Shown piece after piece: positions 3,182 to 19,088 of a stretch of DNA of 64,000 bases. A program made the position numbers and the translations under genes. The notes under the pieces are model-generated. The model was not told the DNA's origin and did no database searches. It worked only from the letters and a program-made list of their open reading frames with translations. How positions within the stretch are numbered: the stretch's first letter is position 1; every line of letters begins with the position of its first letter. The DNA comes from an uncultured Alphaproteobacteria bacterium (GTDB lineage: Bacteria; Pseudomonadota; Alphaproteobacteria; Rs-D84): contig CAJOGD010000006.1 in the NCBI GenBank assembly GCA_905233975.1, forward strand, positions 19,609 to 83,608. Reading direction: 5' to 3'.

Positions 3182-3183
3182 AT

Positions 3184-3662: not shown

Positions 3663-4826
3663 TTATTGATTCTGGGGGATATAGACGTTGGTGCTGACCT
3701 CTGGGCCGGCGGCAAAGTTTGTGTTGGCCGGAACACTGGGGAAGAAGCGCCGCGACACCGTATCATACATACCGACCTTGTTATCACTGTTTTGACGCGC
3801 GGGAAACCCGTTAAACACGAACGTCCCCGATGCATCTTTTATCCATATACGATACACCTTTGCAGAAATTTTTTGTCCGGCCACCCCCTCTATATTATTC
3901 GCAAATAAAAACATTCTTAATGTATTATCAGAAACTCTGGTTTGCGTAAAATTTTGTATGGTTCCATCAAAATCTATTGTAATATTATTTTCATTGTCAA
4001 TCGTTGTATGTATTGTATGTCTGGCGGTGGGATTTGTAAGGCTTATAGAACTATACGATGTTGAAGTTGAATTATACAACCTTAGAGCCCCGCCGGCGAA
4101 ATAGTATGTTTGCCGTAAATTATAGCTATTCGCATTTGATTGACACCCCATCAACGTCACATTACCCGCGTCGGTAGTTTTTTGGAAATCTATAAATACC
4201 TCACTTGCCAATTGGTCTAACACAACACCTGTATCAATATATTGATGCCCGTCGGATTCAATCCATTTTAATTCTGTATATCCGTCTGGCAAAGAATGTC
4301 CCGCTGCACCATTGTGGATTTCCCATAGCCAACAAGTACCGGTGACTGGTTGCCGGTTGTCGGAACATACGAATTCTCGGTCAAGACCATTTTTGAGTGC
4401 GGCGTTAAATGTTTTTGCGTCAATCAGGTTGTCGGATTGGTCGGCGTATGTGCCGGTTGTTTGATAAATTCCCTTTCGTCCGATTTGCCCGGCCGTTCCG
4501 GTGTAGGTGACGGCGGTGTGATCGTTAACCGCGGCGATGTCGTCCTGTTTTTGGTTTAACTTTGTATTCACACCACCAACCATGGGCAGCGATTCGGTAC
4601 CTCCGTTATCCAGGTCCGATGTGACGGCGCGTTTTTGAACATCGCCGGCCGCGTTGGTGTATTCCATGGCCTTGTTATTATCCGCGCCGAATTTATTCTG
4701 ACGCGTATCCAATTCATGTTCGACGTATTTCAACGACGTTGCGGTTTTCCGATCCGCCACTTCTTCCGCCACCGCCGGCAACGCCGCCGCAATTAACCCG
4801 AATAACAAAAACTTTTTCAATTGCAT
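3663..4826 (-). CDS. Secreted modular fibre/adhesin-like protein, paralog A (constant N-terminus + domain X + YIPQNQ)
   Basis: Signal peptide; about 170 aa near-identical to 50846..52351 and 59859..60827; 'LPDGYTELKWIESDGHQYIDTG...GMYDTV' domain. Confidence 0.8.
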   Translation of the reverse strand: MQLKKFLLFGLIAAALPAVAEEVADRKTATSLKYVEHELDTRQNKFGADNNKAMEYTNAAGDVQKRAVTSDLDNGGTESLPMVGGVNTKLNQKQDDIAAVNDHTAVTYTGTAGQIGRKGIYQTTGTYADQSDNLIDAKTFNAALKNGLDREFVCSDNRQPVTGTCWLWEIHNGAAGHSLPDGYTELKWIESDGHQYIDTGVVLDQLASEVFIDFQKTTDAGNVTLMGCQSNANSYNLRQTYYFAGGALRLYNSTSTSYSSISLTNPTARHTIHTTIDNENNITIDFDGTIQNFTQTRVSDNTLRMFLFANNIEGVAGQKISAKVYRIWIKDASGTFVFNGFPARQNSDNKVGMYDTVSRRFFPSVPANTNFAAGPEVSTNVYIPQNQ

Positions 4827-4861
4827 TTGACTCTCCTTGTTCCTTTCACTGGCCGCTAACA

Positions 4862-5050
4862 AAAACACCACCGAAAACGTGTGGTTGGAGGTTCAAGACA
4901 ATTTAAGGAAATTGTGTGCTTATTTTGACAGGCCCATTGGACCCACATTATTCGCATCCCTCCAACCAATTTTGGTTGGAGTTTTTGTCGATAACATGAC
5001 TCGACATCCTTAAACGGGTCTTGACACCCCATCGGCAGAATTCCCACCGA
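4862..5050 (-). ncRNA. Putative structured leader RNA, copy upstream of paralog A
   Basis: Minus strand GTGGGAA...GGGG; pairings tcaagac/gtcttga and tttaagga/tccttaaa; internal hairpins tgtcga/tcgaca and ctccaaccaa/ttggttggag. Confidence 0.55.
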
Positions 5051-5057
5051 CAAATCT

Positions 5058-5087
5058 ATTCTAACAAAAAACGAAAAGGTAAATCAA
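5058..5087 (-). promoter_or_regulatory. Sigma70 promoter with extended -10
   Basis: TTGATT-18 nt-TAGAAT with TG at the extended position. Confidence 0.6.
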
Positions 5088-5180
5088 GATAAAAGTGTTA
5101 GTGGTTAGTAGTCTCTAGAATTTGTTTGTAATTGTGAAATTATTCAAGATTCTACTAACCACTATCCACTTACACTAACA

Positions 5181-5438
5181 CTATTTTATCACTGCCGTTT
5201 TAATCAGTGTTAAATCTTCTTTGATGCCGTCGATTTTTAATTGTAATTGCCCTATTCCGGTTTCCAAAATGGTCGTCCGGTTTTCAAGTGTCGTTATGCG
5301 TGTCGTCAATCGGTCAAGTTCGACCAGTGCGTTATCTTGGCGGGCGGCCCAATATATAAGGCCCGCAATAAAGGCGATTAAAAACCAACCACTGCGCAGT
5401 GTGTCGATAATACCCATAAGGCCGTTAGACTTTGGCAT
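5181..5438 (-). CDS. Small membrane protein with coiled coil (phage lysis/haemolysin XhlA-like?)
   Basis: One TM helix followed by a heptad coiled coil; last gene of the virion operon. Confidence 0.5.
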   Translation of the reverse strand: MPKSNGLMGIIDTLRSGWFLIAFIAGLIYWAARQDNALVELDRLTTRITTLENRTTILETGIGQLQLKIDGIKEDLTLIKTAVIK

Positions 5439-5631
5439 TGTTACGCCCCCTTTCAATTAAAGTTTCAATTTGATGCACGATTGCGCGTGCGCCCTCCAGC
5501 GCGCGCAGTTCGCCGTCCGTCGCGTGTGGCCCCAGCACCCTTTCGATTGTTATCCGGCGCAGGTGTTCAATGACCGCCCGCCCGGACGCGCCCGCAAAAG
5601 TGCGGGCGTATTCGTGTGCGATTTTTTCCAT
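5425..5631 (-). CDS. Bbp19-like phage protein
   Basis: 'YARTFAGASGRAVIEHL...LEGARAIVHQI' is typical of the small gene following BPP-1-like portals. Confidence 0.65.
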   Translation of the reverse strand: MEKIAHEYARTFAGASGRAVIEHLRRITIERVLGPHATDGELRALEGARAIVHQIETLIERGRNNAKV

Positions 5632-5641
5632 ATGTGTCCCC

Positions 5642-6868
5642 CTATATCAATGTGCCGTTTTCCGCAACCATTTGCGCAATCGGCGCAATGTATTTTAATT
5701 CCGCGTCACTGTGCAGCGATATTTTGTCGATTACGCCACGCCGCGCAAGGATTTGCAATCCGCGGTCGCAAAGCGGTCTGATAAATTCGTGCAACAGTCG
5801 GCCATACGTCGCACCCAGTATGCGCAGCATGTCTGCGTTCCGCGCAAGTATTTCCGTCGCCGTCATTTCTTTGTCCGAAAGCGTGCCGATTCTGTCCGCA
5901 AGCATTGTGTGGCGGATGCGTTCGCGCAGGTCTTTTAGAATTATTTGCGACACATCAAAATTTGCACCCGTTGCAAGTGGCGTAAGGCCGGTACTGCCCA
6001 CCGCTTTGGGGATTATCGCACCGGGGGTAAGGTTTATGTTGCCAAGGTTTATGACGCCGTCATCGTCGGCCTGCCATATGCCACTGACCGCGATGGTTGC
6101 GTTTTTTAGGACAAGTTCGACGACCTTGTTCGCGGTTTTGATATCAGGTAGCGCCCGCAGCACCGGGCCGCGGCCGTACTGTTCGCCGCTTGCCAATGCC
6201 CAACGAAAGATGATGTATGGGTTCGTTTCGAATGTGCCACGTGACACGATATTATTTTCCAAATCGCCACCAACATCTATCCATGCGGTAAATTCCGTAT
6301 CGACCAATGCCTGAACCAGGCGCAATTGGTATTCCGGATTTTGCTTTATCGCGTCAAGGATTGCGCGTGGCGGCGTCCATTCGGGATAACGACGCGCAAT
6401 ATCTTGGGCACAAAGCGTTGCCGTATGAAAGACCGCGTTCGGCAAAATTGCAATATCTGACATTGGGATTGCGGTAAATGTAAATGCACTTGCCGCGCCA
6501 ATCGGCGATTCAGACATAAACAGACATGCCGTTCCCATCGTCACAAGATCCATATAGCATTGATGAATCGTCGTATAAAAATTCGATTCGTTCAGGTTTG
6601 AACGCAGTGCCATTGTCGCCGCAACCGCGTCCGGTGATTCATTTGATTCCGGCACAAGGTTCAGCCACAATGATTCCGGCGGTGTGAGTAATGAATACAT
6701 GCATGCCGCCAAATTATCCGCCGCGTCCGCCGCCGTTCCATCGAACAATGTTGCGATTTCTTCGTCGGTCGTTGGCATTGTATAGCGGCGCGCATCGGAC
6801 CAACGCTTTATCCATGGTTCGCGCAAGGCCAGCGCACGTGAATACATTTTTTGTAAGTCATATTTCAT
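5642..6868 (-). CDS. Phage portal (head-tail connector), T7/BPP-1-like
   Basis: 'LFDGTA', 'RW...GEQYGRGP...ALPDIKTAN', 'MTATEI..R' motifs. Confidence 0.9.
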   Translation of the reverse strand: MKYDLQKMYSRALALREPWIKRWSDARRYTMPTTDEEIATLFDGTAADAADNLAACMYSLLTPPESLWLNLVPESNESPDAVAATMALRSNLNESNFYTTIHQCYMDLVTMGTACLFMSESPIGAASAFTFTAIPMSDIAILPNAVFHTATLCAQDIARRYPEWTPPRAILDAIKQNPEYQLRLVQALVDTEFTAWIDVGGDLENNIVSRGTFETNPYIIFRWALASGEQYGRGPVLRALPDIKTANKVVELVLKNATIAVSGIWQADDDGVINLGNINLTPGAIIPKAVGSTGLTPLATGANFDVSQIILKDLRERIRHTMLADRIGTLSDKEMTATEILARNADMLRILGATYGRLLHEFIRPLCDRGLQILARRGVIDKISLHSDAELKYIAPIAQMVAENGTLI

Positions 6869-6883
6869 TTCTTTTCCTTTTGG

Positions 6884-7732
6884 TTAGAGTTTAAATTCTG
6901 TGTTCGCAATAAATTGGCGAACGTTTGTTCCAATTGGACGCATCGGCACAGATTGGCATAAAATTGCCCCGGCGACCGCGTCCAGCCCATCGTCATGTTC
7001 GCCGCCACCGTTCGGTGTCCATGCCAACATTTCTGAGATAAAAGGTGTTTGTGTTATGCGTCGATGCGCATAAAGGCGACCGGTCGTAAGCAACGGTTCA
7101 ATCGCGTCCAAAATTCTATCTTCTTTGCGGCGACTGTTGGTTATAGGGCGAATTTGTATTTCATAGCCCGCGTGCGCAATTGTGTCGCGCATTATTTCCG
7201 GCAACGCCGCACCGATTCCGTTTGTTTCCACGCAAAGCGTCCTTTGCCGGTGCATGCGCACAAACGAAAGCACATGTTCACACTGATATGCCAACGGGTA
7301 TTCTATGCCGTCCGGCACGACAAGATATGTTATATCGTGGATAAACACGCGGTGGCCACGATCGTCACGATAGGCAATAACGCAAACACTGTTGTCTGAA
7401 TTGCGTCGGCCGCCCGATGGGTCCCAATAAATTATTGCGCCTGTTATCGGGGTTTCGCCGATTCTGCATCCATGCGGGTCAAAATCATCGTCATAGAATT
7501 TGATTCCGCCTGGATCAAGACGGATTTTATCGGGCGCAACGAATTGCAACATCATTTGCGCCGAAAAATGTCTATCGCCGACAGTTTCCCTTATTTTTTC
7601 TATCCTTTCTATTGGAAAAACGGCCGGCCACGCGGAATTTCCGTCCACATCAACGATCGGTATTTTTAATTCCGAATAGCCCGATAAAAAAGGCGTTGAA
7701 AAAACATTTTTTTCGTATACTATGTTTGACAT
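6884..7732 (-). CDS. Terminase large subunit, C-terminal nuclease half
   Basis: 'AWP..F', 'FSAQMM', 'YWDPS', 'VETNG.G', 'KEDRI', 'HDDGLDAVAGA'; GGAG RBS about 9 nt upstream. Confidence 0.85.
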   Translation of the reverse strand: MSNIVYEKNVFSTPFLSGYSELKIPIVDVDGNSAWPAVFPIERIEKIRETVGDRHFSAQMMLQFVAPDKIRLDPGGIKFYDDDFDPHGCRIGETPITGAIIYWDPSGGRRNSDNSVCVIAYRDDRGHRVFIHDITYLVVPDGIEYPLAYQCEHVLSFVRMHRQRTLCVETNGIGAALPEIMRDTIAHAGYEIQIRPITNSRRKEDRILDAIEPLLTTGRLYAHRRITQTPFISEMLAWTPNGGGEHDDGLDAVAGAILCQSVPMRPIGTNVRQFIANTEFKL

Positions 7733-9272
7733 GGACTTTACTCCCAAAACTTTACCAACGAATTTAGAGGCCGAACAGGCCGTATTGGCCGCGGTATTGA
7801 TGAAAAACCGGGCACTTGAAAAAATTTCTGAATTCTTGCGGCCCGAAGATTTTTCACACCCCGCGCACCAAGAAATTTATAAACTTGCCCTACGCCAGTT
7901 CGCGGCCGGGATTCCGTTTGATATAATCACCGCGAAAACATACCTTGACCAACAGGGAACTTTAGAATCGGTCGGTGGTGTAGAATACCTTAGTCAGTTG
8001 GCAAGTGCCGGCGCAACCGTTGTAAATGTTGAACAGTATGGCCGTATCGTACATGAAAACGCCGTTCGACGTGAATTGATTGACTTTGGCCAATCAATTA
8101 CAGATGCCGCATTTGTTGAAGACCTTGATAATCCGGTGTCCGCACAAATTGAAGCGGCGGAACAAAAACTTTTCAACCTTGCCATGACCGGGGACACAAC
8201 GCGCGATGTTGTCCCGATTGCGAACGCGTTAAAAGATGCATTGGCCGAGGCAGAGATCGCATACAAGGCCGACGGAAAACTTTCCGGGCTTACCACCGGG
8301 CTTACCGATTTAGATCGCGCAATAAGTGGCATGCACAAATCTAATTTACTAATTATTGCCGGACGCCCGGGTATGGGAAAAACCGCACTTGCCATGAACA
8401 TCGCGTTCAATGCGGCAAATGCAATTTATTCTGGGCGCGCGAACGAACAGTATAAGGGTGCCGTTGCATTTTTCAGTTTGGAAATGGGCGCGTCTGAATT
8501 GGCCGCACGTGTTTTATCGTCCCAATCCAGAATTTCCGCATCGGCAATGCGCGAAGGGTCGCTTACCGATGAAGATTTCCTTAAAATGGCCCAGTTTTCC
8601 GACGCAATCGGACGAATCCCGTTGTTTATTGATGATACGCCGGGCATGTCTTTGCCAATGATTCGCACGCGTGTGCGGCGTCTTGCGCGAAAATATAATG
8701 GCATCGCGTTAATCGTTATCGACTATTTACAATTGTTGACATCGCCGGGCGGCAAAAACAAAGATAATCGTGTTCAGGAATTATCCGAAATTACACGCGG
8801 CCTTAAAATGATGGCCAAGGAATTCAATGTCCCGGTTATCGCACTATCGCAATTATCGCGCAGTGTTGAAAGTCGCGATGACAAGCGTCCACAACTTGCG
8901 GATTTACGTGAATCGGGGTCTATTGAACAAGATGCCGACATTGTTATGTTCACTTATCGTGAAGAATATTATTTGCAAAATCGCGATCCGTCGCGGCGGC
9001 TTTCTAATACCCCGAATGAAAAGTCTGTTGATTCGTGGCAAAATCGTCTTGAAAAGGCCAAAGGCAAGGCAGACATTATCATCGGCAAGAATCGTCATGG
9101 TCGAACAGATACAATTAACGTCGCCTTTTTGGCAGAGTATAGTTTATTCGACAACCTTAATGAAATGGCCAACCGCGTTCCAGAATTTGCACCGGACACG
9201 CCGGCCCAATCTGAACCCGGGGATATACCAACACCAATTGATATTGATGCAATCCCAGATGATTTTGAATAA
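7731..9272 (+). CDS. dnaB: Replicative DNA helicase DnaB
   Basis: EAEQAVL, Walker A GRPGMGKT, FSLEM, IDYLQL, LSQLSR, DLRESGSIEQDAD. Confidence 0.95.
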   Translation: MDFTPKTLPTNLEAEQAVLAAVLMKNRALEKISEFLRPEDFSHPAHQEIYKLALRQFAAGIPFDIITAKTYLDQQGTLESVGGVEYLSQLASAGATVVNVEQYGRIVHENAVRRELIDFGQSITDAAFVEDLDNPVSAQIEAAEQKLFNLAMTGDTTRDVVPIANALKDALAEAEIAYKADGKLSGLTTGLTDLDRAISGMHKSNLLIIAGRPGMGKTALAMNIAFNAANAIYSGRANEQYKGAVAFFSLEMGASELAARVLSSQSRISASAMREGSLTDEDFLKMAQFSDAIGRIPLFIDDTPGMSLPMIRTRVRRLARKYNGIALIVIDYLQLLTSPGGKNKDNRVQELSEITRGLKMMAKEFNVPVIALSQLSRSVESRDDKRPQLADLRESGSIEQDADIVMFTYREEYYLQNRDPSRRLSNTPNEKSVDSWQNRLEKAKGKADIIIGKNRHGRTDTINVAFLAEYSLFDNLNEMANRVPEFAPDTPAQSEPGDIPTPIDIDAIPDDFE

Positions 9273-9366
9273 GTGACCACTAACACTCGCCACTATTCAC
9301 TTTTTACTTGCTATGGTTTAAAAAATTCCTTATCCTTTTGTCAAGGTTTATACCAAGGAGTGTCTT

Positions 9367-10374
9367 ATGGCCCTAGAAGAAATTATATTTCCCAATAATA
9401 TTCGTAATATCAGATTGGCGGCGGGTATGAAAATGACCGAACTTGCGCGACGGTCTAATTTATCTTTGTCCGCTGTGTCCAAGATAGAAAAAGGTGTCCG
9501 GCGCCTTAATCAAAAGCAATTACTTAATATTTGCAAAATCTTGGGCTGTAAATTGTCCGATATTTTCATCAAGGATACTGACGAGGTTGCATCAAAATGG
9601 CAAGATGAAATCACACGCCGTATGAATGATAACGAAGATGGCGGGCTAAAGATTTTTGGTAGTGGTTTGCGCAAAATACGTCAGCAATCCGGCAAAACCA
9701 TTGCCCAGGCGGCAAAAGACGCCGGCATGACACTATCGGTGTATCATAAAATAGAAGTCGGCCAGCGCGAGGTCTATAAAAACGAAATCGAACCATTGGC
9801 TCAATCTTTCGCGCATTCTGTGGAAAGTTTGTTCAATAAAATTGCCGAACTTTACAAATCTGGCGAACTGACCAAACAAATGAACAAGGTCAAAGAAGGC
9901 GTCAAGGCCGTTTTGGTACCGGGTGGAACCGATGATTTGGACGACGTACATGGCCATTTGTACAGTGCAAAACTTTATGATAACGCACGCAAAAAATTGG
10001 TTCCGGTATTTGGAAAGCCCGAAGGCAAAGCGATTGCTTTTGCGAAATCGGATTCAAATATGATTGTTGCACCGGCTAATCTCGAAGGCCGTCGTGATGT
10101 GTATGCAATCATACCTAACTCTAAACGTTTGGGCGGCTTTATACCCGAAAACTCTTATGTCTTCGCTGATATCAAGGCGGCGGTGGCCCCCGGGGATTTG
10201 GCGGTCTTTATTGATACAGACTTTAATTCCCTTAAATCAGAAGAAGCCGTTGTTGCAAATATTGCCATTGTGCGTAAAGATGCCAAAGGCAAAATTTATG
10301 GTCAAATGGTATCTCCGGACGAAAAGATTTCTGCCCAAACTATGCACAAGGTAATAATGTTTATCAACGAATAG
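9367..10374 (+). CDS. XRE-family regulator with two HTH domains and a degenerate S24-like C-terminus
   Basis: Two Cro/C1 HTHs ('ELARRSNLSLSAVSKIEKG' and 'AAKDAGMTLSVYHKIEVG') and a 'VPVFG...YAI...PGDLAV' tail. Confidence 0.8.
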   Translation: MALEEIIFPNNIRNIRLAAGMKMTELARRSNLSLSAVSKIEKGVRRLNQKQLLNICKILGCKLSDIFIKDTDEVASKWQDEITRRMNDNEDGGLKIFGSGLRKIRQQSGKTIAQAAKDAGMTLSVYHKIEVGQREVYKNEIEPLAQSFAHSVESLFNKIAELYKSGELTKQMNKVKEGVKAVLVPGGTDDLDDVHGHLYSAKLYDNARKKLVPVFGKPEGKAIAFAKSDSNMIVAPANLEGRRDVYAIIPNSKRLGGFIPENSYVFADIKAAVAPGDLAVFIDTDFNSLKSEEAVVANIAIVRKDAKGKIYGQMVSPDEKISAQTMHKVIMFINE

Positions 10375-10398
10375 ACAACCAAGGAGGGGGCAAACATC

Positions 10399-11052
10399 AT
10401 GAAGCCAAAGGCAAGTGTCGTTGCACAAAAACTTTTGAACCTGTACCGCCAGGCGCACGTTATTGTTGGCGGCTGGTCGGCGGTTAATCGTGTTTTTGTT
10501 GATGAAGCCACCGATGATGTTTTGCATGAATTAAAGGATTTGCCGACCGGTAAAATGTTGGCCGAACATATTGCCAACCTGCGATCGGGGGCAACACCTA
10601 TGGATTCTATCGCGCACGAATTATTGCCATATGGGGGGCTTATGGCCGAATCTTTGGCAACGGCAAGCATTGATGAATCCGAATTACAACAGTTAATTGC
10701 CGCCGTCGATGCGTTTAGCCCAGATTCTGATGGATTAAAGAATTTTATGGATACGGCAATAATAAAAAAATTCGGGGACGATTGGATTACAATGGCGCAA
10801 AACGCATTGATGGCAAGCCCCGATGCACTGCGGAAATTTGATGATATTGTTCGTATTTCTACGGCATATCGTTTGTGGGATGAAGCAAATGCGATACTGG
10901 CCGCCCCGGCCACAGATCGCGTTCGTGCCCATCTACAGGTGGATATGCCGGAATACGAAACATACCTGCCGATGTTTGGTGACGAAGGCAAAGAGTTGTT
11001 GCATCGTTTGCATGGGTTAACAAGTTCTATGCCATCGCACGATGCGGCTTAG
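10399..11052 (+). CDS. Hypothetical protein
   Basis: 217 aa ORF with AAGGAGG RBS; stop overlaps the terminase N-half stop. Confidence 0.75.
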   Translation: MKPKASVVAQKLLNLYRQAHVIVGGWSAVNRVFVDEATDDVLHELKDLPTGKMLAEHIANLRSGATPMDSIAHELLPYGGLMAESLATASIDESELQQLIAAVDAFSPDSDGLKNFMDTAIIKKFGDDWITMAQNALMASPDALRKFDDIVRISTAYRLWDEANAILAAPATDRVRAHLQVDMPEYETYLPMFGDEGKELLHRLHGLTSSMPSHDAA

Positions 11053-11642
11053 GCCGTTTTGTATATCGTGTCCAATGTATGCGGGGTACCGATATATATC
11101 ATCGTGCCGTTTGGTGATAGTATAAAATCAAGTTCCCTTAATCTTTCCCGCAAAATTTGCCTCTTCTTGATTGTATTAGATGTGTTTGGCACCTCTACAT
11201 CATCGCATATTATTAAATCCGCACGCATTCCGGTTATGTTTCCATATATGCCCTGGCATACAACTGATGGTTCGCGAATCCCAAGTGGTCTATTTATGGT
11301 AATTTTGTTTTCCGCCCATTCACGTTTATTCTTTGGAATCATTCCGGCACACCATGGATGATTTTCAAGAATATGACGTATATGCATAACCATTCTTGTT
11401 GCCAAATGTGTTTCCGCAGATAAAATCAGAATACGCGTTTCTGGGCGCAAAAACAAAACACATGCGGCAAAAATTCCAACAATCGTTGATTTCCCCGAAT
11501 GCCGGAACGCCATAAGCAGACCACGATGCGAATCGCCGTTTATTACATCAACAAGGAAATTCGTCATTTGATAGTGATGCAACGGCGTTTTATACCCCAA
11601 CACATTGTTCCAAGCCTCTAAAAATTCGTTATACTGATTCAT
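11049..11642 (-). CDS. Terminase large subunit, N-terminal ATPase half
   Basis: Walker A 'AFRHSGKST', Walker B 'ADLIICDDVE', coupling motif 'YIGTPH', followed by a stop. Confidence 0.85.
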   Translation of the reverse strand: MNQYNEFLEAWNNVLGYKTPLHHYQMTNFLVDVINGDSHRGLLMAFRHSGKSTIVGIFAACVLFLRPETRILILSAETHLATRMVMHIRHILENHPWCAGMIPKNKREWAENKITINRPLGIREPSVVCQGIYGNITGMRADLIICDDVEVPNTSNTIKKRQILRERLRELDFILSPNGTMIYIGTPHTLDTIYKTA

Positions 11643-11650
11643 TGTATAAA

Positions 11651-11995
11651 TTAAATTAATTTATCAAGGTGTTCCAAAATCGATGTCAGCATATTTTTTT
11701 TCTTGGTTGTGATACCCGCCAATTTATTTAGGTTCGCACGTTTTTTGTTTTCATACGGTGTTTCGGTTTCGTCCTTTATACGCGCCAACACGTTTTTTTC
11801 GGTAAGTCCATTATTCGACATACCCGACGCCCCATATTTTGCACGTTGCGCCCCCAGAACTTTCTTTACAATATTGCGCTTTTCTGCATCATCTGCGGCA
11901 ATTTCCGCGATGATTTTGTTTTTATTTTTTTCGGCGGTATTTTTATTTTCTTGATAGTTTAAAATATCCGTCACATCTGAAAGAATTTGTCCCAT
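11651..11995 (-). CDS. Putative internal virion protein
   Basis: 'GAQRAKYGASG' motif; position after tail tubular B as in podoviruses. Confidence 0.55.
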   Translation of the reverse strand: MGQILSDVTDILNYQENKNTAEKNKNKIIAEIAADDAEKRNIVKKVLGAQRAKYGASGMSNNGLTEKNVLARIKDETETPYENKKRANLNKLAGITTKKKNMLTSILEHLDKLI

Positions 11996-12009
11996 TTTAT
12001 ACTCCATTT

Positions 12010-13716
12010 TTAAATTTGATATCTTCCGTATGTCGTCACCGATAAGATTTTCAGTGGCAAACTGTCTGTTGTTGAAATTGTCCATGGTGCGTCTATTAAA
12101 TCCGCACTTGTGCCAAGAACATTGACCGACACATCACCGTCAAAGCCATCGGAATCATCAGAATAAATATCATTAGGTAAAACCCCGCGTTCGTCATTTA
12201 TAAATAATGTTTTGGTATTATAAACACGCACAGTTATTTTCGTAATCCTGATGTATTTTGCATTATGCCCCGATGTTAAAAGCGGCATTCCCTTTGCTGT
12301 TGCGGTATATGCATAATTTGTGGCATCAACAAATTCCGAATCATCGAAATATTCAAGGAAAAAGTCATCGCCACGTTTAACCACAACAAATGTTTTTCCA
12401 TCACATACGGCCACAGATTTAAATTCGCCATTTGTGGTATAACGTCCCCACGCTGATATTCCTTGGGCCACATCATAGTTCAAAACAGCCATATTTCCCG
12501 CAGACATCACAACAAAAAGTTTTTTGGTGTTTTTGTTATATGCGATGTCAATCGGTTCGGTTATCAGGTGTTTTGATAAATCGCACAAATTATTTGCGTT
12601 ATAATTTTCGCCCATTTCATCAAGCCCAAGTTGGCGAATATCTGGTCCAACCTTGGAAACAAATATTGTTTTGCCTTCCATTTGTTGTGGCGGCAAATAT
12701 TTATCTGCGATACTGCCCATAGAAGTGTGCATTTTTATATCCACAGATTCCGGCGTTAGTGGCTTATTCGAAACCGCCCATTCGCCTTCGGACGTAAGTA
12801 TTTGCAAATTGTCACTGCTGACCAATGTGCATACATGCTGTCTGCGATCAGATAACAGTGTAAAAAATATCGCCTCGTCATCTAAACCTGTTCCAAGGTT
12901 GAAATTTTTATGCTGGCCTACGTGCGACATCCATATTCCGCCCGGCCATGATTTGGCACCACCAAAGACAAGTCTATCTTGGTGAAATGTTATTGCCGAT
13001 GGCCAACCACGCCGCGGGCTAAATACGGCCTCTTGCCAATCTGACACCGGATCATTCGGCAAAGTATATGCGCCGTTGCATGTGGCGATTACTTCGGTTG
13101 GACTTACATATGTATTAACCAACCAACTTTTGCCAATGGCAAATAAATGTCCCCCAACATTATCCGCGGTCCAAAAATTTTCATTGGTTGTAAAATGGAC
13201 TTTACCGTCAGAATACGTAATGGTTATTGTTATGCCTTCGGAATCTTCGAATCGCATAAACGGTATTTCAACATTATGCGTATCCGATGAAACGGAAAAT
13301 GCGAAATACCTGATTTTAAACACACCGTTTTCATAATAAAAAATTCTTGGGGCATAATCTGGGTGCACAAATATCATCGTTCCGAATCGCTGGGCATACC
13401 GAATCTTGGGTATATCTGAACTGGTCCAAGGCGTTAACACATCTTGGACAAAGGTACCGTTTGAAAACACCCTGATGCGACCATTCATAATGGCCAATAT
13501 ATATTCTTCGGTTTCTGATACAGAAAAAGCGACCAGTCTTGCATTCGCCAGCAGTTGCGGCCCATTCTTTAATCCGGCCCTGCGAACAAGTCCGCCACCA
13601 CTGCACACATCAAAATTTTCCATATATGCAAGTCCATGAATATTTTCATTTTCGACAAAATTTATTGAAACTTCACCGTCTGCGAAAGATTTCTGTGTTT
13701 TTATAAAATTCACCAT
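12010..13716 (-). CDS. Tail tubular protein B (nozzle)-like
   Basis: 'SFADGEVS', 'GGLVRRAG', 'WPSAITFHQDRLVFGG' motifs. Confidence 0.85.
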   Translation of the reverse strand: MVNFIKTQKSFADGEVSINFVENENIHGLAYMENFDVCSGGGLVRRAGLKNGPQLLANARLVAFSVSETEEYILAIMNGRIRVFSNGTFVQDVLTPWTSSDIPKIRYAQRFGTMIFVHPDYAPRIFYYENGVFKIRYFAFSVSSDTHNVEIPFMRFEDSEGITITITYSDGKVHFTTNENFWTADNVGGHLFAIGKSWLVNTYVSPTEVIATCNGAYTLPNDPVSDWQEAVFSPRRGWPSAITFHQDRLVFGGAKSWPGGIWMSHVGQHKNFNLGTGLDDEAIFFTLLSDRRQHVCTLVSSDNLQILTSEGEWAVSNKPLTPESVDIKMHTSMGSIADKYLPPQQMEGKTIFVSKVGPDIRQLGLDEMGENYNANNLCDLSKHLITEPIDIAYNKNTKKLFVVMSAGNMAVLNYDVAQGISAWGRYTTNGEFKSVAVCDGKTFVVVKRGDDFFLEYFDDSEFVDATNYAYTATAKGMPLLTSGHNAKYIRITKITVRVYNTKTLFINDERGVLPNDIYSDDSDGFDGDVSVNVLGTSADLIDAPWTISTTDSLPLKILSVTTYGRYQI

Positions 13717-13738
13717 TTTAAAATCTCCCTTGGCTGTG

Positions 13739-14260
13739 TTAGAAACGACTATCTATCAATGAAAAATTTTCTATTCCGGTATTCACAGATGTTGTGCTGT
13801 CTATGAATTTTGCAGTTTGTAATTCATTTTCATAAAGCGCCACCAGTGTTTTAAACACCGTTTGGTCAGAAATAAGTGGCATACAAAATTCCACTGCAAG
13901 TTTTGTCGCAACCAGTGACGCAAAATAACTTGGGAATTCATTCGGTATTACGCGAACTATTGCGGTTATGGTTAATGTATCCGCACCTGACACAATTTTA
14001 TTTTCCATCAATCGACCGTTGGTTTTGATAACCCTTAACACATCAGATGGTATTACAAAGTCGCCGTTTCCATCGCGTGTCAACGTATATGTGCGACATG
14101 CAAAACGCCAAGGATGCATTGCCAACAATGTATCTATTACAAAGTCAACAAACGTCCGCCCAAGTTTTGCCGCCGCGGTATCATCTGACAATGATTGAAT
14201 TGGATTTTCACCCAATTTCAACAATGCCATTGAACACAAATCTATTTTCGTTAGCATCAT
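13739..14260 (-). CDS. Tail tubular protein A (adaptor)-like
   Basis: 'IDLCSMALLKLGENPIQSL', 'HPWRFA', 'FASLVATKLAVE'. Confidence 0.85.
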   Translation of the reverse strand: MMLTKIDLCSMALLKLGENPIQSLSDDTAAAKLGRTFVDFVIDTLLAMHPWRFACRTYTLTRDGNGDFVIPSDVLRVIKTNGRLMENKIVSGADTLTITAIVRVIPNEFPSYFASLVATKLAVEFCMPLISDQTVFKTLVALYENELQTAKFIDSTTSVNTGIENFSLIDSRF

Positions 14261-14274
14261 TTTCCCCTTATTCT

Positions 14275-14314
14275 AAAAAAATCACAGGGGGCGAAATATC
14301 CGCCCCCTTTTTTA
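14275..14314. terminator. Intrinsic terminator after the capsid/decoration genes
   Basis: agggggcg-aaatatc-cgcccct hairpin flanked by A and T tracts. Confidence 0.65.
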
Positions 14315-14330
14315 TAAACAACAAACAATC

Positions 14331-14564
14331 TTAGTCTAATGCACCTGTGGTCACCACACCAGCATCACTAACAGCGATTTTCTTTATCGATGTTTTATCC
14401 GAAGCATTGATCATGATCATGTCGCCACTGTTCATCAAAGTTGCGACCGAATCAAAATAACCACTTGCTGTGATTGTCGCCAATGTTGCGCTTTCAACAT
14501 AGTGCCACAGTGTGAAACCATTTGCGTATGCAATTACCGATAAATTTTTATTTTGAAAAGCCAT
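14331..14564 (-). CDS. Small capsid-associated (decoration-like) protein
   Basis: 77 aa 'NGFTLWHY...ITASGYF...GDMI' directly after the capsid gene. Confidence 0.6.
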   Translation of the reverse strand: MAFQNKNLSVIAYANGFTLWHYVESATLATITASGYFDSVATLMNSGDMIMINASDKTSIKKIAVSDAGVVTTGALD

Positions 14565-14587
14565 TGTTTTCCCCTTGATTATTGATG

Positions 14588-15406
14588 TTATTCACCGCAC
14601 TTAAGACGGACAATTCCCGTACCGTCAATCAAAACTGCGCCCTGGGACATGCTATTGCTAATAAAGTGCGCCGCACGTTCACCATGCCACGAAATATCAG
14701 TCTTGACTTCCTGACCGCACGCATGACCGATGCTTGATGCATGATAGATAAAGCAATCACGATGCGTTGACGAAGATAACGGCAATCCGTTATGCATCAA
14801 CCACGTAATACCAAGCCATCTTTTAACTTCGCCACCATTGATGAATGGCAAATCAGACCCAACATATTCCGCAGATGAAAATTCATCGATACCAAGCAAT
14901 TCATTCCATTGTTTCACACCAACAACGGCAAATCTGCGACCATCGTCGGGCACATCGTTTTCATTCAATTGTTCCAATGCACCAAGCACAATGGTCTTGG
15001 TCAAACCGGTCGAATAATCACCGGAATTCTGGGTCGTTGCTGTCATGGCCGAAATGATCAATTCATCGGTTTTACGACCCAATGCATATGCACCTGCCGC
15101 CGCAACAACACGACGTTCATCGATATTGACTTTCAATTCATCCAACGCATCAACCCAATCACCCGCATAGTAATCTTGCAAATTGCATTCAACGGGTTCA
15201 TGATTCAGATTCATAACCGGCACGATACCATGACGCGATTTCGTACTGGCGGTACCTTTACCAATTTTCTGAAATGTTGTAGATTTCCCAACAACCCCAG
15301 ATTTACTGCGGATTGTGGAACGCAACTTTGTTCCCATTTGTTGATACGCCAAATGGACATCAGCTTCGAATTGTTTCACAAATACTTGATCTATGGAAAC
15401 AGACAT
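14588..15406 (-). CDS. Major capsid protein (podoviral type)
   Basis: 'FVKQFEADVHLAYQQMGTKLR', 'YALGRKTDELII', 'NDVPDDGRRF', 'WLGITW'. Confidence 0.9.
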   Translation of the reverse strand: MSVSIDQVFVKQFEADVHLAYQQMGTKLRSTIRSKSGVVGKSTTFQKIGKGTASTKSRHGIVPVMNLNHEPVECNLQDYYAGDWVDALDELKVNIDERRVVAAAGAYALGRKTDELIISAMTATTQNSGDYSTGLTKTIVLGALEQLNENDVPDDGRRFAVVGVKQWNELLGIDEFSSAEYVGSDLPFINGGEVKRWLGITWLMHNGLPLSSSTHRDCFIYHASSIGHACGQEVKTDISWHGERAAHFISNSMSQGAVLIDGTGIVRLKCGE

Positions 15407-15532
15407 TATTATTCCTTTTGTTAAATGTTATACATGGTAAAAAACTTTACCGAACCAAAAATTGTTTTCTGGTTATGCACGAATGCGCCAAAAGAACAAA
15501 TTAAACGGGTCCAAACTAATGGATTATCCAAT

Positions 15533-15608
15533 CAAAAAAATTCAGTCAGACTGATCAAATCTGACTGAAAATTTTTATAAACAAAAATGCCCGACATGCG
15601 GGCATTTT
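15533..15608 (-). terminator. Two hairpins (terminators) between the histone-like gene and the capsid gene
   Basis: ttcagtcaga/tctgactgaa and aaaatgccc/gggcatttt inverted repeats with U tracts. Confidence 0.6.
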
Positions 15609-15625
15609 ATAAGTTTAGCGAATTT

Positions 15626-15922
15626 TTATTTTTTCTTTGCACATGCTTTTTTTGCACATGGTTTTTTCGCAACAACTTTCTTTGCGACCGGTTTCTTTGC
15701 CGCAACTTTCTTCACCACTGGCTTTTTTGCCGCAGGTTTTTTTGCAACGACTTTCTTTGCAACCGGTTTTTTAGCCGCAACTTTTTTTACAACTGGCTTT
15801 TTAACGGCCGGTTTCTTTGCAGCAGGTTTTGCCGCAGGTTTCTTTGCCGCCGGCTTTTTAGCAGCGACCGCTTTTTTTGCAGCAGGTTTTTTTGCCGCAG
15901 TTTTCAAGAATGTGAATGCCAT
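15626..15922 (-). CDS. Histone H1-like Lys/Ala/Pro-rich DNA-binding protein (Hc2/AlgP-like)
   Basis: Pentapeptide repeats KKPAA/KKPVV/KKVAA; AGGAG RBS. Confidence 0.8.
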   Translation of the reverse strand: MAFTFLKTAAKKPAAKKAVAAKKPAAKKPAAKPAAKKPAVKKPVVKKVAAKKPVAKKVVAKKPAAKKPVVKKVAAKKPVAKKVVAKKPCAKKACAKKK

Positions 15923-16040
15923 TCATCTCTCCTTTCTATTTTTTTGGATAGAACAAATTTCTTTTGTTCTTAATTGCATTTTATATTAAACAAAAAAATT
16001 AGTAAAGAAGAAAAGTAATTTTTTACAAAAAAAAATTACA

Positions 16041-16697
16041 TCATGAATATAATTTTTTAAAACCGTTTTCAATTTTACGTATATATTCTGCATCGTGATC
16101 ACGCCAATATTTTGGATCACGCATCATATTACGCAAATCAGAATCAGATAATTTTTCCGGGGCATTACCATCCGTTTCGACATGCGGTTCCATTGATTGC
16201 ATCATCTTATAAACGCCTTGGATTCCTTGGGGTGTAGAGCACAATTCGTTAAACGCATCGGCCGGCAAAAATCTTTCACCAAAAGATTTTATTGCGACAA
16301 AAGCATCATGCATTTTTTCTTCGCCACCAAAAAAATTTTGCAATTCTGACATCGCTTTTGTTTCTTGTTGCATTGAAAAAATTTCTGAAATTATCGGAGA
16401 TAAAAATTCCTGTGCAATACCATAAATTTTTTCTACCTGGGAATTTGTTAAACCTATTTTATGAAATTCTTGACGCACATTTTCATTATCAAACAGTTCA
16501 CTATGCGGATATTCTTCTGGATTTTCCGGAACACCAATCGCCCGCATAAAGCGGCTTTTCGTCGCTTCATCAGATTTTTCATCGGGCACAGTTATCATTC
16601 CACCAATCTTCTTTTCAAGTTCATTATAAGATTTGATTAACGCATCGCTATTAAGTGTTCCATCTTCGTTTAAAAATTTTTCTGGTACTTTTTCCAT
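16041..16697 (-). CDS. Capsid assembly scaffolding protein
   Basis: 'VPEKF...LIKSYNELEKKIG', 'GVPENPEEY', 'MMRDPKYW'. Confidence 0.8.
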   Translation of the reverse strand: MEKVPEKFLNEDGTLNSDALIKSYNELEKKIGGMITVPDEKSDEATKSRFMRAIGVPENPEEYPHSELFDNENVRQEFHKIGLTNSQVEKIYGIAQEFLSPIISEIFSMQQETKAMSELQNFFGGEEKMHDAFVAIKSFGERFLPADAFNELCSTPQGIQGVYKMMQSMEPHVETDGNAPEKLSDSDLRNMMRDPKYWRDHDAEYIRKIENGFKKLYS

Positions 16698-16698
16698 T

Positions 16699-16887
16699 TT
16701 ATTTTCCTTTTTGTTGATTTGTTTTTTGCAACATATAAATTCCGCCAATAGCAATAAATGCCTGAATTGTGGCGAACAAATCCGAATCGCCTACAAGATA
16801 TGCACATATCGCAGACAATATCCCACACGCGGTCATTATTTGTGTTCGCCGATTCGCAAAGAATCCACCATGTATGAATTTACTCAT
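16699..16887 (-). CDS. Holin-like two-TM protein
   Basis: Two short hydrophobic helices and a basic C-terminus, next to the cell wall hydrolase. Confidence 0.5.
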   Translation of the reverse strand: MSKFIHGGFFANRRTQIMTACGILSAICAYLVGDSDLFATIQAFIAIGGIYMLQKTNQQKGK

Positions 16888-16910
16888 GATTATCCCCATA
16901 TAAAAAATTA

Positions 16911-17321
16911 TTAGGCATAAAACAAAAGTCCGTCTATGTCACATACGTATCCACGTGCAACCGCCCACGACGGTAAGATTTCTACACGATGAAACATTGT
17001 TGCGTGCCGACACATATCCGGCAAATTACCATGCAACATGGTTTGGGCCACACGCAAACACATTTGGAAGTCGCATCGTGATGTATCCACAGACAAAAAT
17101 TCGTGACGTGTTGATTCGGAATTTAACGATTCGAATCGATGTGCATCAGATATAACGTGTCTAATATTTTTTATATCGTGTTCGGCGGCGTTAAAAATCA
17201 TTGACGTTAACGCCTCTACTACGCGCAAAGACTTTGCAAGCGTTTCGGCATATACGACACGTGCGACCATATATGCCAATGTCATATTTTCGCTTTGCGC
17301 TTCTATCAATTCCAACTGCAT
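16911..17321 (-). CDS. Cell wall hydrolase (SleB/Hydrolase_2-like), putative endolysin
   Basis: 'ARVVYAE' (catalytic Glu), 'ATMFH...PSWA', 'LLFY'. Confidence 0.7.
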   Translation of the reverse strand: MQLELIEAQSENMTLAYMVARVVYAETLAKSLRVVEALTSMIFNAAEHDIKNIRHVISDAHRFESLNSESTRHEFLSVDTSRCDFQMCLRVAQTMLHGNLPDMCRHATMFHRVEILPSWAVARGYVCDIDGLLFYA

Positions 17322-17335
17322 GATTTTCCCCATAT

Positions 17336-17389
17336 AAAAAAAACCACGCGGATGCGTGGCATAAAAAAATCCATACCCGAAAGTATGAA
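17336..17389 (-). terminator. Two consecutive intrinsic terminators in the leader of the virion operon
   Basis: Minus strand ttcatac-tttcgg-gtatgga+T7 and ccacgc-atcc-gcgtgg+T8. Confidence 0.7.
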
Positions 17390-17417
17390 CCTATAATATC
17401 TCCTGTTGATGTTCTAT

Positions 17418-17446
17418 AGTGTATCACAAAAGCGGCACAAAGTCAA
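17418..17446 (-). promoter_or_regulatory. Sigma70 promoter of the virion operon
   Basis: TTGACT-17 nt-TACACT on the minus strand. Confidence 0.65.
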
Positions 17447-17480
17447 GGGTTTTATAAAAATGCGCGGTTTCCATAGGGGT

Positions 17481-18161
17481 TCACATGGTTATTTCATCGC
17501 CATGAATTAATAAATATTCTGTTCCGCGTCGAACAACCAACGCACCCGAATCATTTATTCCTATCAATTCCACCATTTCGCCACGATATTTAACCAGGCC
17601 ATTTATACCAACCGCAAAAGACATCCACGCATTACGCACCGAATCGAATTCTGCCCTAATCCATTTGTCTAATTTTTTGGTTAATTGCGAAAAGAAATCC
17701 GATATATCCGCATTTGTGTATTTATCAGCCCGCGTTGTTTCATATTCTTGGACGGTCGGATTTGAATGTATGTTAATTCCGATTCCGATTATAACGAATC
17801 GCCCCGCATATTCGATTAAAACGCCCGCAATTTTCTTGCCGGCCACCAGTATATCGTTCGGCCATTTTATGGAAGATTGCACACCGAAACATTCAAGCGT
17901 TTCCGCAATAGCGACCGCCACCGCATACGAAAGTCGTGGATCACGTTCCGGTGAATTAAATATAAAACTTGCATACAAATTTCCATGATGCGAAACCCAT
18001 TTGCGGCGATACCGTCCACGTCCGTCTGATTGCGCAAGGGCCACAATCACACTGTGGTCGCGCGCCTCACCTTTGGCAATAATATCGTATGCATAATCTT
18101 GCGTACTTGATATTTTATCAAAAGAAAAAACTTTATATCCGGCCAAGTTTGAAAATCCCAT
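17481..18161 (-). CDS. birA: Biotin--[acetyl-CoA-carboxylase] ligase
   Basis: 'SSTQD', 'QSDGRGRYRRKW', 'IKWPND', 'KKIAGVL'; start uncertain. Confidence 0.9.
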   Translation of the reverse strand: MGFSNLAGYKVFSFDKISSTQDYAYDIIAKGEARDHSVIVALAQSDGRGRYRRKWVSHHGNLYASFIFNSPERDPRLSYAVAVAIAETLECFGVQSSIKWPNDILVAGKKIAGVLIEYAGRFVIIGIGINIHSNPTVQEYETTRADKYTNADISDFFSQLTKKLDKWIRAEFDSVRNAWMSFAVGINGLVKYRGEMVELIGINDSGALVVRRGTEYLLIHGDEITM

Positions 18162-18552
18162 CTGTGTTTTTGATAAAATCGCGTCCATATAATTTGCGCA
18201 GCCCGTATATGGCGGTTTCCACACTGTGCGTTGTCGCGTCGGGAGAATACCCCAGTGCAACCTTTAGATCATTCGCCGACATGCCGCCGCTTTTATAAAG
18301 TAATGTAACAATTTGTGTCTGGGCGGGCGACAGCGAAACCGGTTTGTTGAATACATCAGATATTATTTTTTCACTATCCATTTCCGAAATTATTATGGAC
18401 TTTAATGCGGCCACAGGAATTGACGGTTCAACATGCAAATCATCAAAATTCACGTCACAAAGCAACGAATTTTCGGTCAATGTCGCACCCAGTTCACCCA
18501 ACACGTGACGCCAAACCATATCCGATGTAAAAATCTTTATACCCGATAACAT
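18133..18552 (-). CDS. OmpR-type winged-helix protein with a degenerate receiver domain
   Basis: 'GYSPDATTHSVETAIYGLRK' Trans_reg_C motif. Confidence 0.7.
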   Translation of the reverse strand: MLSGIKIFTSDMVWRHVLGELGATLTENSLLCDVNFDDLHVEPSIPVAALKSIIISEMDSEKIISDVFNKPVSLSPAQTQIVTLLYKSGGMSANDLKVALGYSPDATTHSVETAIYGLRKLYGRDFIKNTDGIFKLGRI

Positions 18553-18653
18553 ATCCCAATGATAATACACAAAAAATCCAGTGTCTATAAAAAATGGACC
18601 GATGGCGCCAAGGCGCGCATCGGTTTTTGCCGTCCTTGGGACCGTATTCGCCA

Positions 18654-18902: not shown

Positions 18903-19088
18903 TATTTCTTCCCCTTTTCTATTAATTACATTGCGTATTTTATTACAAGCCTTTGGAACTCTCAACAAGCACGATTTCCTAGGATTTTCGGGGGTTTTAC
19001 GGATTTTTTGGCACGTGCCAAAATTACCCAAAAAAATATTTTGACAAAAACACTTGACAAATGATTTTCATTGTATTATATTTCGATT

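Follow-up and report, generated by a model that had tools for sequence, protein, structure and literature searches.

What is a set of genes for a short-tailed virion doing among the host genes of a bacterium whose genome measures 1.04 Mb? The set lies in a Candidatus Enterousia genome (GTDB order Rs-D84; 11 contigs, completeness 94.8%), at positions 5181–17333, minus strand, of a 64,000-nucleotide stretch of contig CAJOGD010000006.1, which was analyzed as a whole and is hereafter called the window. A first-pass annotation, made from the nucleotide letters, had read it as a minimal podovirus-derived virion module, domesticated by its host and forming a candidate new type of gene transfer agent (GTA). 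Domestication is strongly supported here by synteny, by intactness and by the ratio of nonsynonymous to synonymous substitution rates (ω): the module consists of intact, single-copy genes, has a fixed place among those of the host and agrees with host taxonomy. As to their role, we lean towards a phage-derived, now cellular gene set that would build DNA-filled, short-tailed particles of the T7/HTVC010P podovirus type and would act in a GTA-like manner.

A complete set of head, tail and packaging genes

In the direction of transcription, the module encodes a hydrolase, a protein of 66 amino acids (aa), the scaffold, the capsid, a 77-aa protein, tail tubular proteins A and B (tubes A and B), a gp14-like protein, the N- and C-terminal pieces of the large terminase (terN and terC), the portal, a 68-aa protein and a 91-aa protein. 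The listing of open reading frames (ORFs) and the family scans confirmed the portal, terminase halves, tubes, capsid and scaffold named in the first-pass annotation, all of them on the minus strand, and the module, complete for morphogenesis and packaging, has been conserved as one unit.

The portal, a T7-type head-to-tail connector (5642–6868; this and all module genes below on the minus strand), matched PF12236 with an E value of 5.5e-81 and, among structures, PDB 9efk_A (3.8e-46) and the T7 portals 6r21 and 3j4a (about 5e-24). The scaffold (16041–16754) belongs to the T7 capsid assembly protein family (PF05396, 1.5e-10). Tube A, the adaptor (13739–14260), matched phrog_394 (2.6e-30) and, just below the cut-off of that family, PF17212 (2.9e-4), while tube B, the nozzle (12010–13716), matched phrog_376 (1e-80). 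The T7 likeness proposed earlier is thus upheld by portal, scaffold and tubes. Two of these proteins are short, as had also been pointed out before: the portal ORF has 413 aa vs. about 500–690 aa in other families and is without about 100 C-terminal residues, and tube B has 568 aa vs. about 630–640 aa in its homologues. Downstream of tube B, p144 (11651–12085) is a gp14-like internal virion protein (phrog_418, 6.5e-5), in agreement with the small internal protein that had been predicted; its true start probably lies near 12007, as judged from relatives, in which homology begins at about residue 28–31.

The major capsid protein (14588–15406) matched PF19821 (2.9e-74). In a search of its profile against PDB, 9eg4_A was the only strong match (8.1e-31), followed by another capsid chain, 9jwb_A (0.0011); the single entry with the 9eg4_A sequence contains seven chains of it, as might be expected for a T=7 shell. 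A BPP-1 capsid structure is also present in PDB, and the module had been called BPP-1-like. This part of the proposal did not hold at the sequence level, as no entry matched by the capsid was recognized as BPP-1 and the nearest phages are Hodr and those of the HTVC010P type.

Every ORF of the cluster is accounted for, and none is a replication, integration or excision gene, the search being one for tyrosine integrases. The observation that no phage polymerase or primase is visible was reproduced: no gene for DNA replication or an RNA polymerase was found in the cluster, where the largest ORF encodes 568 aa (the polymerase family was not searched for genome-wide). Similarly, the reported lack of an integrase was confirmed for tyrosine integrases on the contig of the window (serine recombinases and transposases were not searched for) and within 20 kb of the module in five of five other genomes. 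The nearest tyrosine integrase, 22 kb away in genome G366, is the best-scoring match of that genome and looks like XerC/D.

Module genes are intact and under purifying selection

Intactness was assessed in 87 Enterousia loci, consisting of the window, six loci of the genus and 80 named loci from metagenome-assembled genomes (MAGs). Capsid (87/87), terN (85/85), terC (80/80) and tube A (86/87) were intact, and tube B and portal were full-length in 85/86 and 78/80 loci, respectively. The shortfalls, including both incomplete portals, lie at contig ends, and module genes are otherwise intact wherever the contigs reach. The 77-aa gene was found in all 87 loci, and the 91-aa and 66-aa genes in 73 each. 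A single in-frame stop was present within the aligned stretch of 5 of 74 scaffold matches.

Nei–Gojobori ω values were calculated from the 21 closest of the 87 loci; they are rough, though far from 1, because synonymous divergence is about 1.1 and thus near saturation. For the head, values of 0.061 (capsid), 0.062 (portal), 0.060 (77-aa gene) and 0.183 (scaffold) were obtained; for the tail, 0.101 (tube A), 0.092 (tube B) and 0.21 (gp14-like gene); and for the terminase, 0.056 (terN) and 0.128 (terC). The hydrolase, 91-aa and 68-aa genes gave 0.216, 0.07 and 0.21, respectively. For comparison, the host genes dnaB, XRE and rlmD gave 0.054, 0.071 and 0.130. The comparison of substitution rates that the first-pass annotation had suggested as a check therefore yields 0.056–0.22 for the module. 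Further, identity to other families of the order is higher for the capsid (63–69%) than for DnaB in the same genomes (40–54%). Codon usage is host-like, and in a score resembling the codon adaptation index, capsid (0.777) and scaffold (0.781) exceed the 95th percentile of the genome (0.763). The module genes are hence under strong purifying selection and do not form a decaying prophage; selection of this kind without decay is also a mark of GTAs.

The module is widespread in the order Rs-D84 and is lost as a whole

Enterousia corresponds, in the available text of PMC8035907, to Rs-D84 of GTDB at the ranks of genus, family and order. A capsid profile matched 295 of 328 genomes of this order, 211 of its 224 high-quality genomes and 28 of its 30 genera, nearly always with a single match per genome, and the module is kept in genomes of 0.6–1.3 Mb. 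Patchy presence together with pseudogenization, which the first-pass annotation had named as evidence that would speak against domestication, is thus not what these genomes and the 87 intact loci present. Among at least 552 capsid-bearing stretches from species-representative genomes, the 80 best-ranked stem from MAGs of the rumen and gut, with Candidatus Enterousia frequent among them. Gene order was the same in six of six genus loci, including dnaB within the terminase and birA at the end, and also in the IMG/VR contig L145. In line with what defines GTAs, the phage-derived genes are therefore resident and vertically inherited, as judged from synteny, prevalence and the tree described below; synteny and congruence with taxonomy had been put forward as checks, and both came out in favor of domestication.

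Genomes without the capsid were also inspected. The portal was missing from all five high-quality capsid-less genomes. Two of these five, G090 and G293, probably have assembly gaps and were not counted as losses because dnaB is also missing from them. The G160 locus retains dnaB, the XRE gene, a gene for a 217-aa protein (p217), the histone-like gene and birA, and holds no module gene. In G122, dnaB, XRE, p217 and the histone-like gene are present, neither terC nor the portal precedes dnaB, and the contig ends soon after the histone-like gene; G294 has dnaB, XRE and p217, with no module gene and no histone-like ORF found in the locus. Where it is lost, the module goes as a whole and is not eroded.

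The large terminase is encoded in two pieces

The N-terminal piece, terN (11049–11642), carries the ATPase core (PF03237, 5.2e-5; phrog_38 positions 273–460, 6.6e-40), and the C-terminal piece, terC (6884–7747), carries the lid and the RNaseH-like nuclease (PF22530, 9.2e-9; PF17289; phrog_38 positions 481–701, 8.6e-40). Walker A (SGKST), Walker B (ICDDVE) and GTPH motifs are retained in terN, and WDP, ETNGIG and DDGLDA motifs in terC. In every Rs-D84 family examined, the split falls at the same variable loop, leaving an ATPase ORF of about 200 aa that ends just past GTPH. A second terminase ORF of about 265–357 aa is present in families f2, f3, f4 and f5 (loci L020, L021, L023, L026, L027, L028 and L030), and in f6 (L024) the N piece stands alone in the locus. 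In f2, f4 and f5 the pieces are neighbors, 175–380 bp apart; in Enterousia (f1) and f3, other genes intervene. Of the class-level loci from outside the order, 16 contain both halves, which are contiguous in every case, and they form one ORF of 487–495 aa in the three loci checked by ORF (L125, L126 and L135). The simplest reading is a single ancestral split, retained since; shared by the families of the order, it serves as a marker of vertical descent.

An intron or another known RNA family as the cause of the split was considered and rejected, as an Rfam scan of window positions 3000–19000 (E up to 0.01) gave no match at all; in five order-level loci, the scan returned tRNAs only.

Two further arrangements were observed around terminase and portal. 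Terminase and portal are separated, in two further families of the order, by a tRNA (L020, 4975–5047; L027, 3892–3964) and host genes, one of them an Amidase_3/AMIN cell-wall amidase. In G383, a 6.5-Mb genome, the portal homologue on contig C2 consists of two open pieces (1262482–1263357 and 1280215–1280625) with about 17 kb between them, covering profile positions 2–295 and 290–426; this could be a second split particle gene or a broken gene.

Related modules occur across the Alphaproteobacteria

A class sample of 301 evenly drawn alphaproteobacterial genomes was searched, of which 70 matched the capsid (E up to 1e-10) and 78 the portal (E up to 1e-20). Strong matches to capsid (E up to about 1e-84) and portal (about 1e-100) occurred together in 48 genomes (about 16%), three of them in the genus of the window; the module is not confined to Enterousia. 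Twenty class-level loci come from genomes of 1.1–6.5 Mb and have a G+C content of 31–70%. Their common order is portal, p68 (the 68-aa protein gene), scaffold, capsid, a small gene, tube A, tube B, a stretch of about 3 kb, terminase and hydrolase. In L126 this stretch contains a gp14-like gene (weak PF24072 match), a 363-aa fibre-like gene, a phage lysozyme, GTA_holin_3TM (PF11351, 1.1e-20) and small ORFs, with no large ORF between tube B and terminase, and the hydrolase is directly followed by pyrD, a HAD hydrolase and a GGDEF gene.

In many genomes, capsid and portal lie far apart, at distances of 1.5 Mb (G606), 1.6 Mb (G589), 153 kb (G554), 134 kb (G618), 74 kb (G578), 60 kb (G470) and 22 kb (G413), or on separate contigs (G579, G453 and G426). 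All of these scattered reading frames are open, and the scattering pattern is alike within a family in the three class-level capsid–portal pairs checked.

A tree was built from concatenated capsid, tube A, tube B, terN and terC sequences (40 rows, phage Hodr as outgroup) by a quick search with Shimodaira–Hasegawa-like approximate likelihood-ratio test (SH-aLRT) support only. Support was 100 for the order, f1, f3 and f92, 99 for f2, 98 for f62 and only 78 for f5. The 25 group labels require 24 changes on the tree, which is the minimum. The rows differ strongly in composition, and the deepest branches are unreliable. Taken together, the module of the window is a reduced, rearranged and apparently undescribed member of a wider family that has been inherited across many alphaproteobacterial families.

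Fibre and lysozyme genes lie at another locus

The statement that no tail fibre is visible holds for the window and not for the genome: a fibre-like 302-aa gene is located on contig C3 (1235–2143), adjoined by a phage lysozyme (PF00959, 1.1e-25), and the module is therefore not self-contained. The N-terminus of the 302-aa protein matched phage tail and tail-fibre families (phrog_1640, 5.6e-12; phrog_6518; phrog_5662), its C-terminus gave a weak match to a fibre C-domain, and the gene matches the one found just before terN in other families of the order. Fibre genes were detected in 55 of 61 genus genomes, at 30–72% identity and often with the N- and C-parts as separate ORFs. An ORF of about 190 aa for the N-part separates the gp14-like gene from terN in 44 of 85 Enterousia loci, the window not being among them, and a full-length fibre is found 28–93 kb from the capsid in G003, G218 and G004.

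In the same 61 genomes, capsid and fibre occurred together in 54, the capsid alone in three (G012, G104 and G108), the fibre alone in one (G164) and neither in three (G090, G122 and G127); three of the four capsid-less genomes were thus also without the fibre. The lysozyme was present in both module-bearing genomes tested (G004 and G006) and in none of three module-less ones (G160, G122 and G294). These patterns suggest one system spread over several loci. The genome also encodes ComEC and DprA.

Relation to phages and to known gene transfer agents

The nearest true phage is Pelagibacter phage EXVC031P Hodr, with a capsid identity of 46%, compared with 32–34% for HTVC010P-type phages; the genomes of these phages measure 34–36 kb. 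Chromosomal copies are closer to one another, with 51–65% capsid identity, than to Hodr. Hodr and the class-level module have portal, p68-like gene, scaffold, capsid, small post-capsid gene, tube A, tube B and fibre-like gene in the same order, and the joint presence of PF19821 capsid, T7-type portal, scaffold and both tubes is that of the HTVC010P/Hodr-type structural module. Hodr differs in having about 20 kb more genes, including those for internal proteins of 783 and 1247 aa, and the large internal (ejection) proteins that follow gp14 in such phages are not found here. Among 43 subjects (this genome and 32 related loci), the 1247-aa protein had no match, the 783-aa protein had one weak 95-aa match on contig C8, outside the module, and a 501-aa gene beside the Hodr portal, taken by its position as the terminase, had none.

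With T7 the module shares the portal, the gp9-type scaffold (PF05396), tubes A and B, a gp14-like protein and a fibre with the N-terminal domain of tail fibre families. It differs in that the cluster contains neither the single-subunit RNA polymerase nor the replication genes that T7-like phages (Autographivirales) carry along with their structural module, the dnaB gene being of cellular type, and in having nothing resembling gp15 or gp16, no recognizable gp18 and another capsid family.

To our knowledge, GTAs are few, and those of Alphaproteobacteria are of the RcGTA and Bartonella types. Measured against what is generally known of RcGTA-type agents, the module resembles them as a phage-derived chromosomal head–tail cluster with vertical inheritance, purifying selection and no integrase, with fibre and lysis parts at other loci, with codon usage of the highly expressed type in head genes and with recipient competence genes. 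The contrast drawn by the first-pass annotation is confirmed by the gene families: instead of the PF05065 capsid, HK97-family portal and long non-contractile tail of the RcGTA type, we found a PF19821 capsid, a T7-type PF12236 portal, the tubes A and B of a short tail, and a terminase in two genes. No PF05065 match was obtained in the genome, which is therefore without an RcGTA-type capsid. RcGTA is described as siphovirus-like, its small head taking up about 4 kb, in the available text of PMC12946183; the head here may be phage-sized.

A full-text literature search, with supplements outside its scope, returned no description of this module. In the portions available, PMC12946183 (January 2026) describes FpGTA of Faecalibacterium prausnitzii, a gut GTA-like element in two loci with an inferred podovirus-like morphology, presents it as the first among GTA-like elements to be podovirus-like and makes no mention of the present module. 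FpGTA, likened to this module by description only, belongs to another host phylum and has packaging data. An 'HTVC010P-like prophage' of Sinorhizobium in PMC10460002, an automatic label given by a prophage finder from its best match and, in the text available, not analyzed as conserved or domesticated, is probably the same kind of region, as compared by description only. Podovirus-like particles of Bradyrhizobium S06B are reported to contain DNA that covers the genome of the host evenly, in a strain lacking known GTA genes (bioRxiv 10.1101/2022.05.06.490963, as far as available).

In IMG/VR, at least 567 stretches encode a relative of the capsid; most contigs among the best 80 measure 4–19 kb, and several end exactly at portal and hydrolase. 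Isolate-derived IMG/VR records (e.g., L183, L187, L191, L196, L199 and L200) suggest that cultured carriers exist. ESM Atlas yielded only capsid clusters, without useful taxa. The 5-kb 'Bacteriophage sp.' record MT838907.1, from human faeces, shows a capsid identity of 63.5%, far above any complete phage in the collection, and may stem from the chromosome of a gut alphaproteobacterium rather than from a phage.

Lysis candidates and small module genes

The cell-wall hydrolase (16911–17333) is SleB-like and adjoins the module in many class-level loci. Its earlier assignment is borne out by a match to the endolysin family phrog_938 (3.5e-7); the match to PF07486 (6.1e-5, 24 bits) remains below the 27-bit cut-off. 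The 66-aa protein (16699–16899) is, as in the first reading, a candidate holin, in which two hydrophobic stretches were seen by eye; a hydropathy scan at a threshold of 1.6 flagged neither of them, and no family match was obtained. The 91-aa protein (5181–5456) is probably a membrane-anchored coiled-coil protein, with one hydrophobic stretch at residues 16–34 and a tail that resembles a coiled coil. It had been called Bbp19-like, for which we found no support, the only match being a weak one to XhlA (0.0077), and it is possibly a lysis accessory protein. The 68-aa helical protein (5425–5631) follows the portal and has no family match; a homologue lies beside the portal in class-level loci and in phage Hodr.

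The 77-aa protein (14331–14564), always encoded 3′ of the capsid gene, matched phrog_18004 (1.4e-12), a family of unknown function, and nothing in PDB. The decoration or cement role proposed earlier is a guess from its position. A terminator-like hairpin (14286–14308, minus strand; 10-bp stem with 7 GC pairs, then a T run; consensus match only) follows the capsid and 77-aa genes. With regard to promoters, a σ70 scan showed no excess (36 found vs. 37.8 expected), and boxes of the CtrA type (TTAA-N7-TTAA) occur three times in the window, none of them in the module and no more often than by chance.

Neighboring host genes

On the plus strand, between the terminase pieces, lie dnaB (7722–9272; NF006606, 599 bits, cut-off 540), an XRE gene with a double helix-turn-helix (HTH; 9367–10374; PF01381, 3.1e-19) and p217 (10399–11052), the last two syntenic across the genus. 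The dnaB gene is the sole DnaB_C match of the genome in a profile search and encodes the host replicative helicase, not a particle protein. A Lys/Ala-rich histone-like host gene (15626–15922, minus strand; PF07382, 6.7e-16) separates scaffold and capsid; it has its own terminator-like hairpins (15608–15541), and hairpins likewise set off birA, which adjoins the module end at 17481. The interleaving with dnaB and a histone-like gene and the abutting birA were correctly described in the first-pass annotation. As dnaB, XRE and p217 are retained in module-less G160, G122 and G294, and a similar histone-like ORF in G160 and G122 as the sole remnant at its site, the interleaved genes belong to the host independently of the module. 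A function of the XRE gene and p217 as dedicated module regulators, and of the histone-like gene as a particle part, is unsupported for the same reason.

Such histone-H1-like genes (seen also at L226, 7554–7880, and L225, 9251–9604) occur between scaffold and capsid in Enterousia and in f3, and not in f2, f4, f5 or f6. The ORF starts of dnaB (plus strand) and terC (minus strand) overlap by 26 bases (7722–7747), so that the promoter of each gene would have to sit inside the other; the aligned parts of relatives are about 20 bases apart.

Beyond the module, a 402-aa protein, p402 (3663–4871, minus strand), has a signal-peptide-like N-terminus and no family match. Among the 87 loci searched, it is absent from L018 and L019 and shows 26–34% identity in the five others with any match. 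It was considered as a tail fibre and rejected on account of its N-terminus, the lack of a family match and its absence where yraN abuts the 91-aa gene (L018 and L019). Farther away, about eight neighboring ORFs of 355–365 aa (38821–50310, minus strand), of which the four scanned were all Peripla_BP_6 (1e-27 to 1e-36), lie beside a branched-chain amino-acid permease component, a paralogue array that is large for a 1-Mb genome. The array fits oddly with the available text of PMC13196213, in which Rs-D84 MAGs are said to be without amino-acid or peptide transport genes.

A proposed function and its alternatives

A GTA-like role is the best reading of these genes and a plausible one, on which we are about evenly divided. 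Scaffold, capsid and portal would assemble a prohead. Because no ATPase or nuclease motif has been lost and the break is located in a variable loop, the two terminase pieces may act jointly as one motor-nuclease; with no recognizable small terminase, this motor would pack whatever DNA ends are available, i.e., host DNA, and would fill the heads without sequence choice. The hairpin that follows the capsid and 77-aa genes, a strong one, could favor head over tail proteins. Tubes A and B, the gp14-like protein and the fast-evolving unlinked fibre would complete a short tail, the variable fibre binding other cells, and the hydrolase, the holin-like and XhlA-like proteins and the unlinked lysozyme would lyse the producer cell and release the particles. 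Since the large ejection proteins of related phages are missing, a recipient would probably take up the DNA through its own ComEC/DprA route, as recipients of RcGTA do.

Several points weigh against a GTA-like role. The system is known here from its genes, and none of the 20 sequencing runs listed for the locus, from six studies, is recorded as RNA. We know of no active two-piece terminase. As in the first reading, no small terminase was recognizable; nor was a holin family recognized, and PF11351 (GTA_holin_3TM) is absent from this genome. The lysozyme matches of G004 and G006 each contain one TGA inside the aligned stretch, the co-absence counts for fibre and lysozyme are small and come from related genomes that are not independent, and ComEC and DprA, found in 10 of 14 control genomes, are too common to be informative. 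The saturation that makes the ω values rough belongs here as well. The module is also dispensable, as it was lost outright in some lineages (G160, G122 and G294). Finally, if the head is sized like those of the related phages, it could hold the 12-kb main cluster, unlike that of RcGTA.

This last point would also suit a selfish element. The module might serve its own spread, either by packaging mainly its own region, as in lateral transduction, or as a satellite-like remnant that needs a helper phage; true phages related to it exist (Hodr), and prophage callers class such regions as viral, as the IMG/VR stretches illustrate. However, the module occupies one fixed chromosomal site in the six genus loci as a single copy, its tree follows host families with the minimum of changes, and its parts can lie on different contigs or, in other families, up to 1.6 Mb apart, with no integrase nearby, so that self-spread appears improbable. 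Slow decay of a functionless cryptic prophage deserves next to no credence. The lack of replication, integration and small-terminase genes, the two-piece terminase and the shortened portal and tube B would suit a remnant, but decay is already contradicted by essentially all 87 loci having intact genes, by ω of 0.06–0.22, by a capsid more conserved than DnaB, by retention in small genomes across 28 of 30 genera and by losses that take the whole set without erosion. Very improbable, too, is that single phage genes were co-opted separately, such as the capsid as a compartment and the hydrolase for wall turnover, with no particle made. The scattering of genes in several families and the presence of the histone-like gene and dnaB among them fit such co-option, whereas the full set of portal, scaffold, capsid, tubes, gp14-like protein, terminase, fibre and lysis genes is kept together, 48 genomes of the class sample have strong matches to both capsid and portal, and parts are lost together.

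A domesticated particle with another purpose is a more serious alternative, which we nevertheless consider unlikely. Such particles might kill by means of the variable fibre, act against phages by capturing or competing with infecting phage genomes, or accompany a programmed lysis that releases DNA or cell contents. The conservation evidence fits these roles equally well, a fibre that evolves fast and shuffles its domains is what one would expect of a targeting part, lysis genes are in the set and, with the ejection proteins missing, delivery of DNA may be inefficient. Against this, terminase (ω 0.056–0.128) and portal (0.062) are among the most constrained genes, which argues that DNA packaging itself is selected; and the phage-derived killing particles known to us are headless tails, which counts against the killer variant.

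Implications

Within a GTA-like role, a broader proposal may be advanced tentatively: that the module represents a second ancient GTA-like family of Alphaproteobacteria, of T7/HTVC010P-type podovirus origin and unrelated to RcGTA, which has been inherited vertically since before many families diverged, is scattered yet intact, and survives in Enterousia gut symbionts of about 0.9 Mb with its terminase working as two polypeptides since the origin of the order. If this is true, about one-sixth of the sampled alphaproteobacterial genomes and nearly all of a widespread gut and rumen order would carry an inherited, podovirus-derived particle system, and many automatic 'prophage' and 'viral contig' calls would be cellular genes. 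The large terminase would offer a natural example of such an enzyme working in two pieces, and the known routes of gene exchange in animal guts would be extended. For the organism itself, a genome of about 1 Mb would be paying to retain about 10 kb of virion genes, and retention under such extreme genome reduction would mean that particle-mediated exchange of DNA is worth its cost, for example by countering mutational decay.

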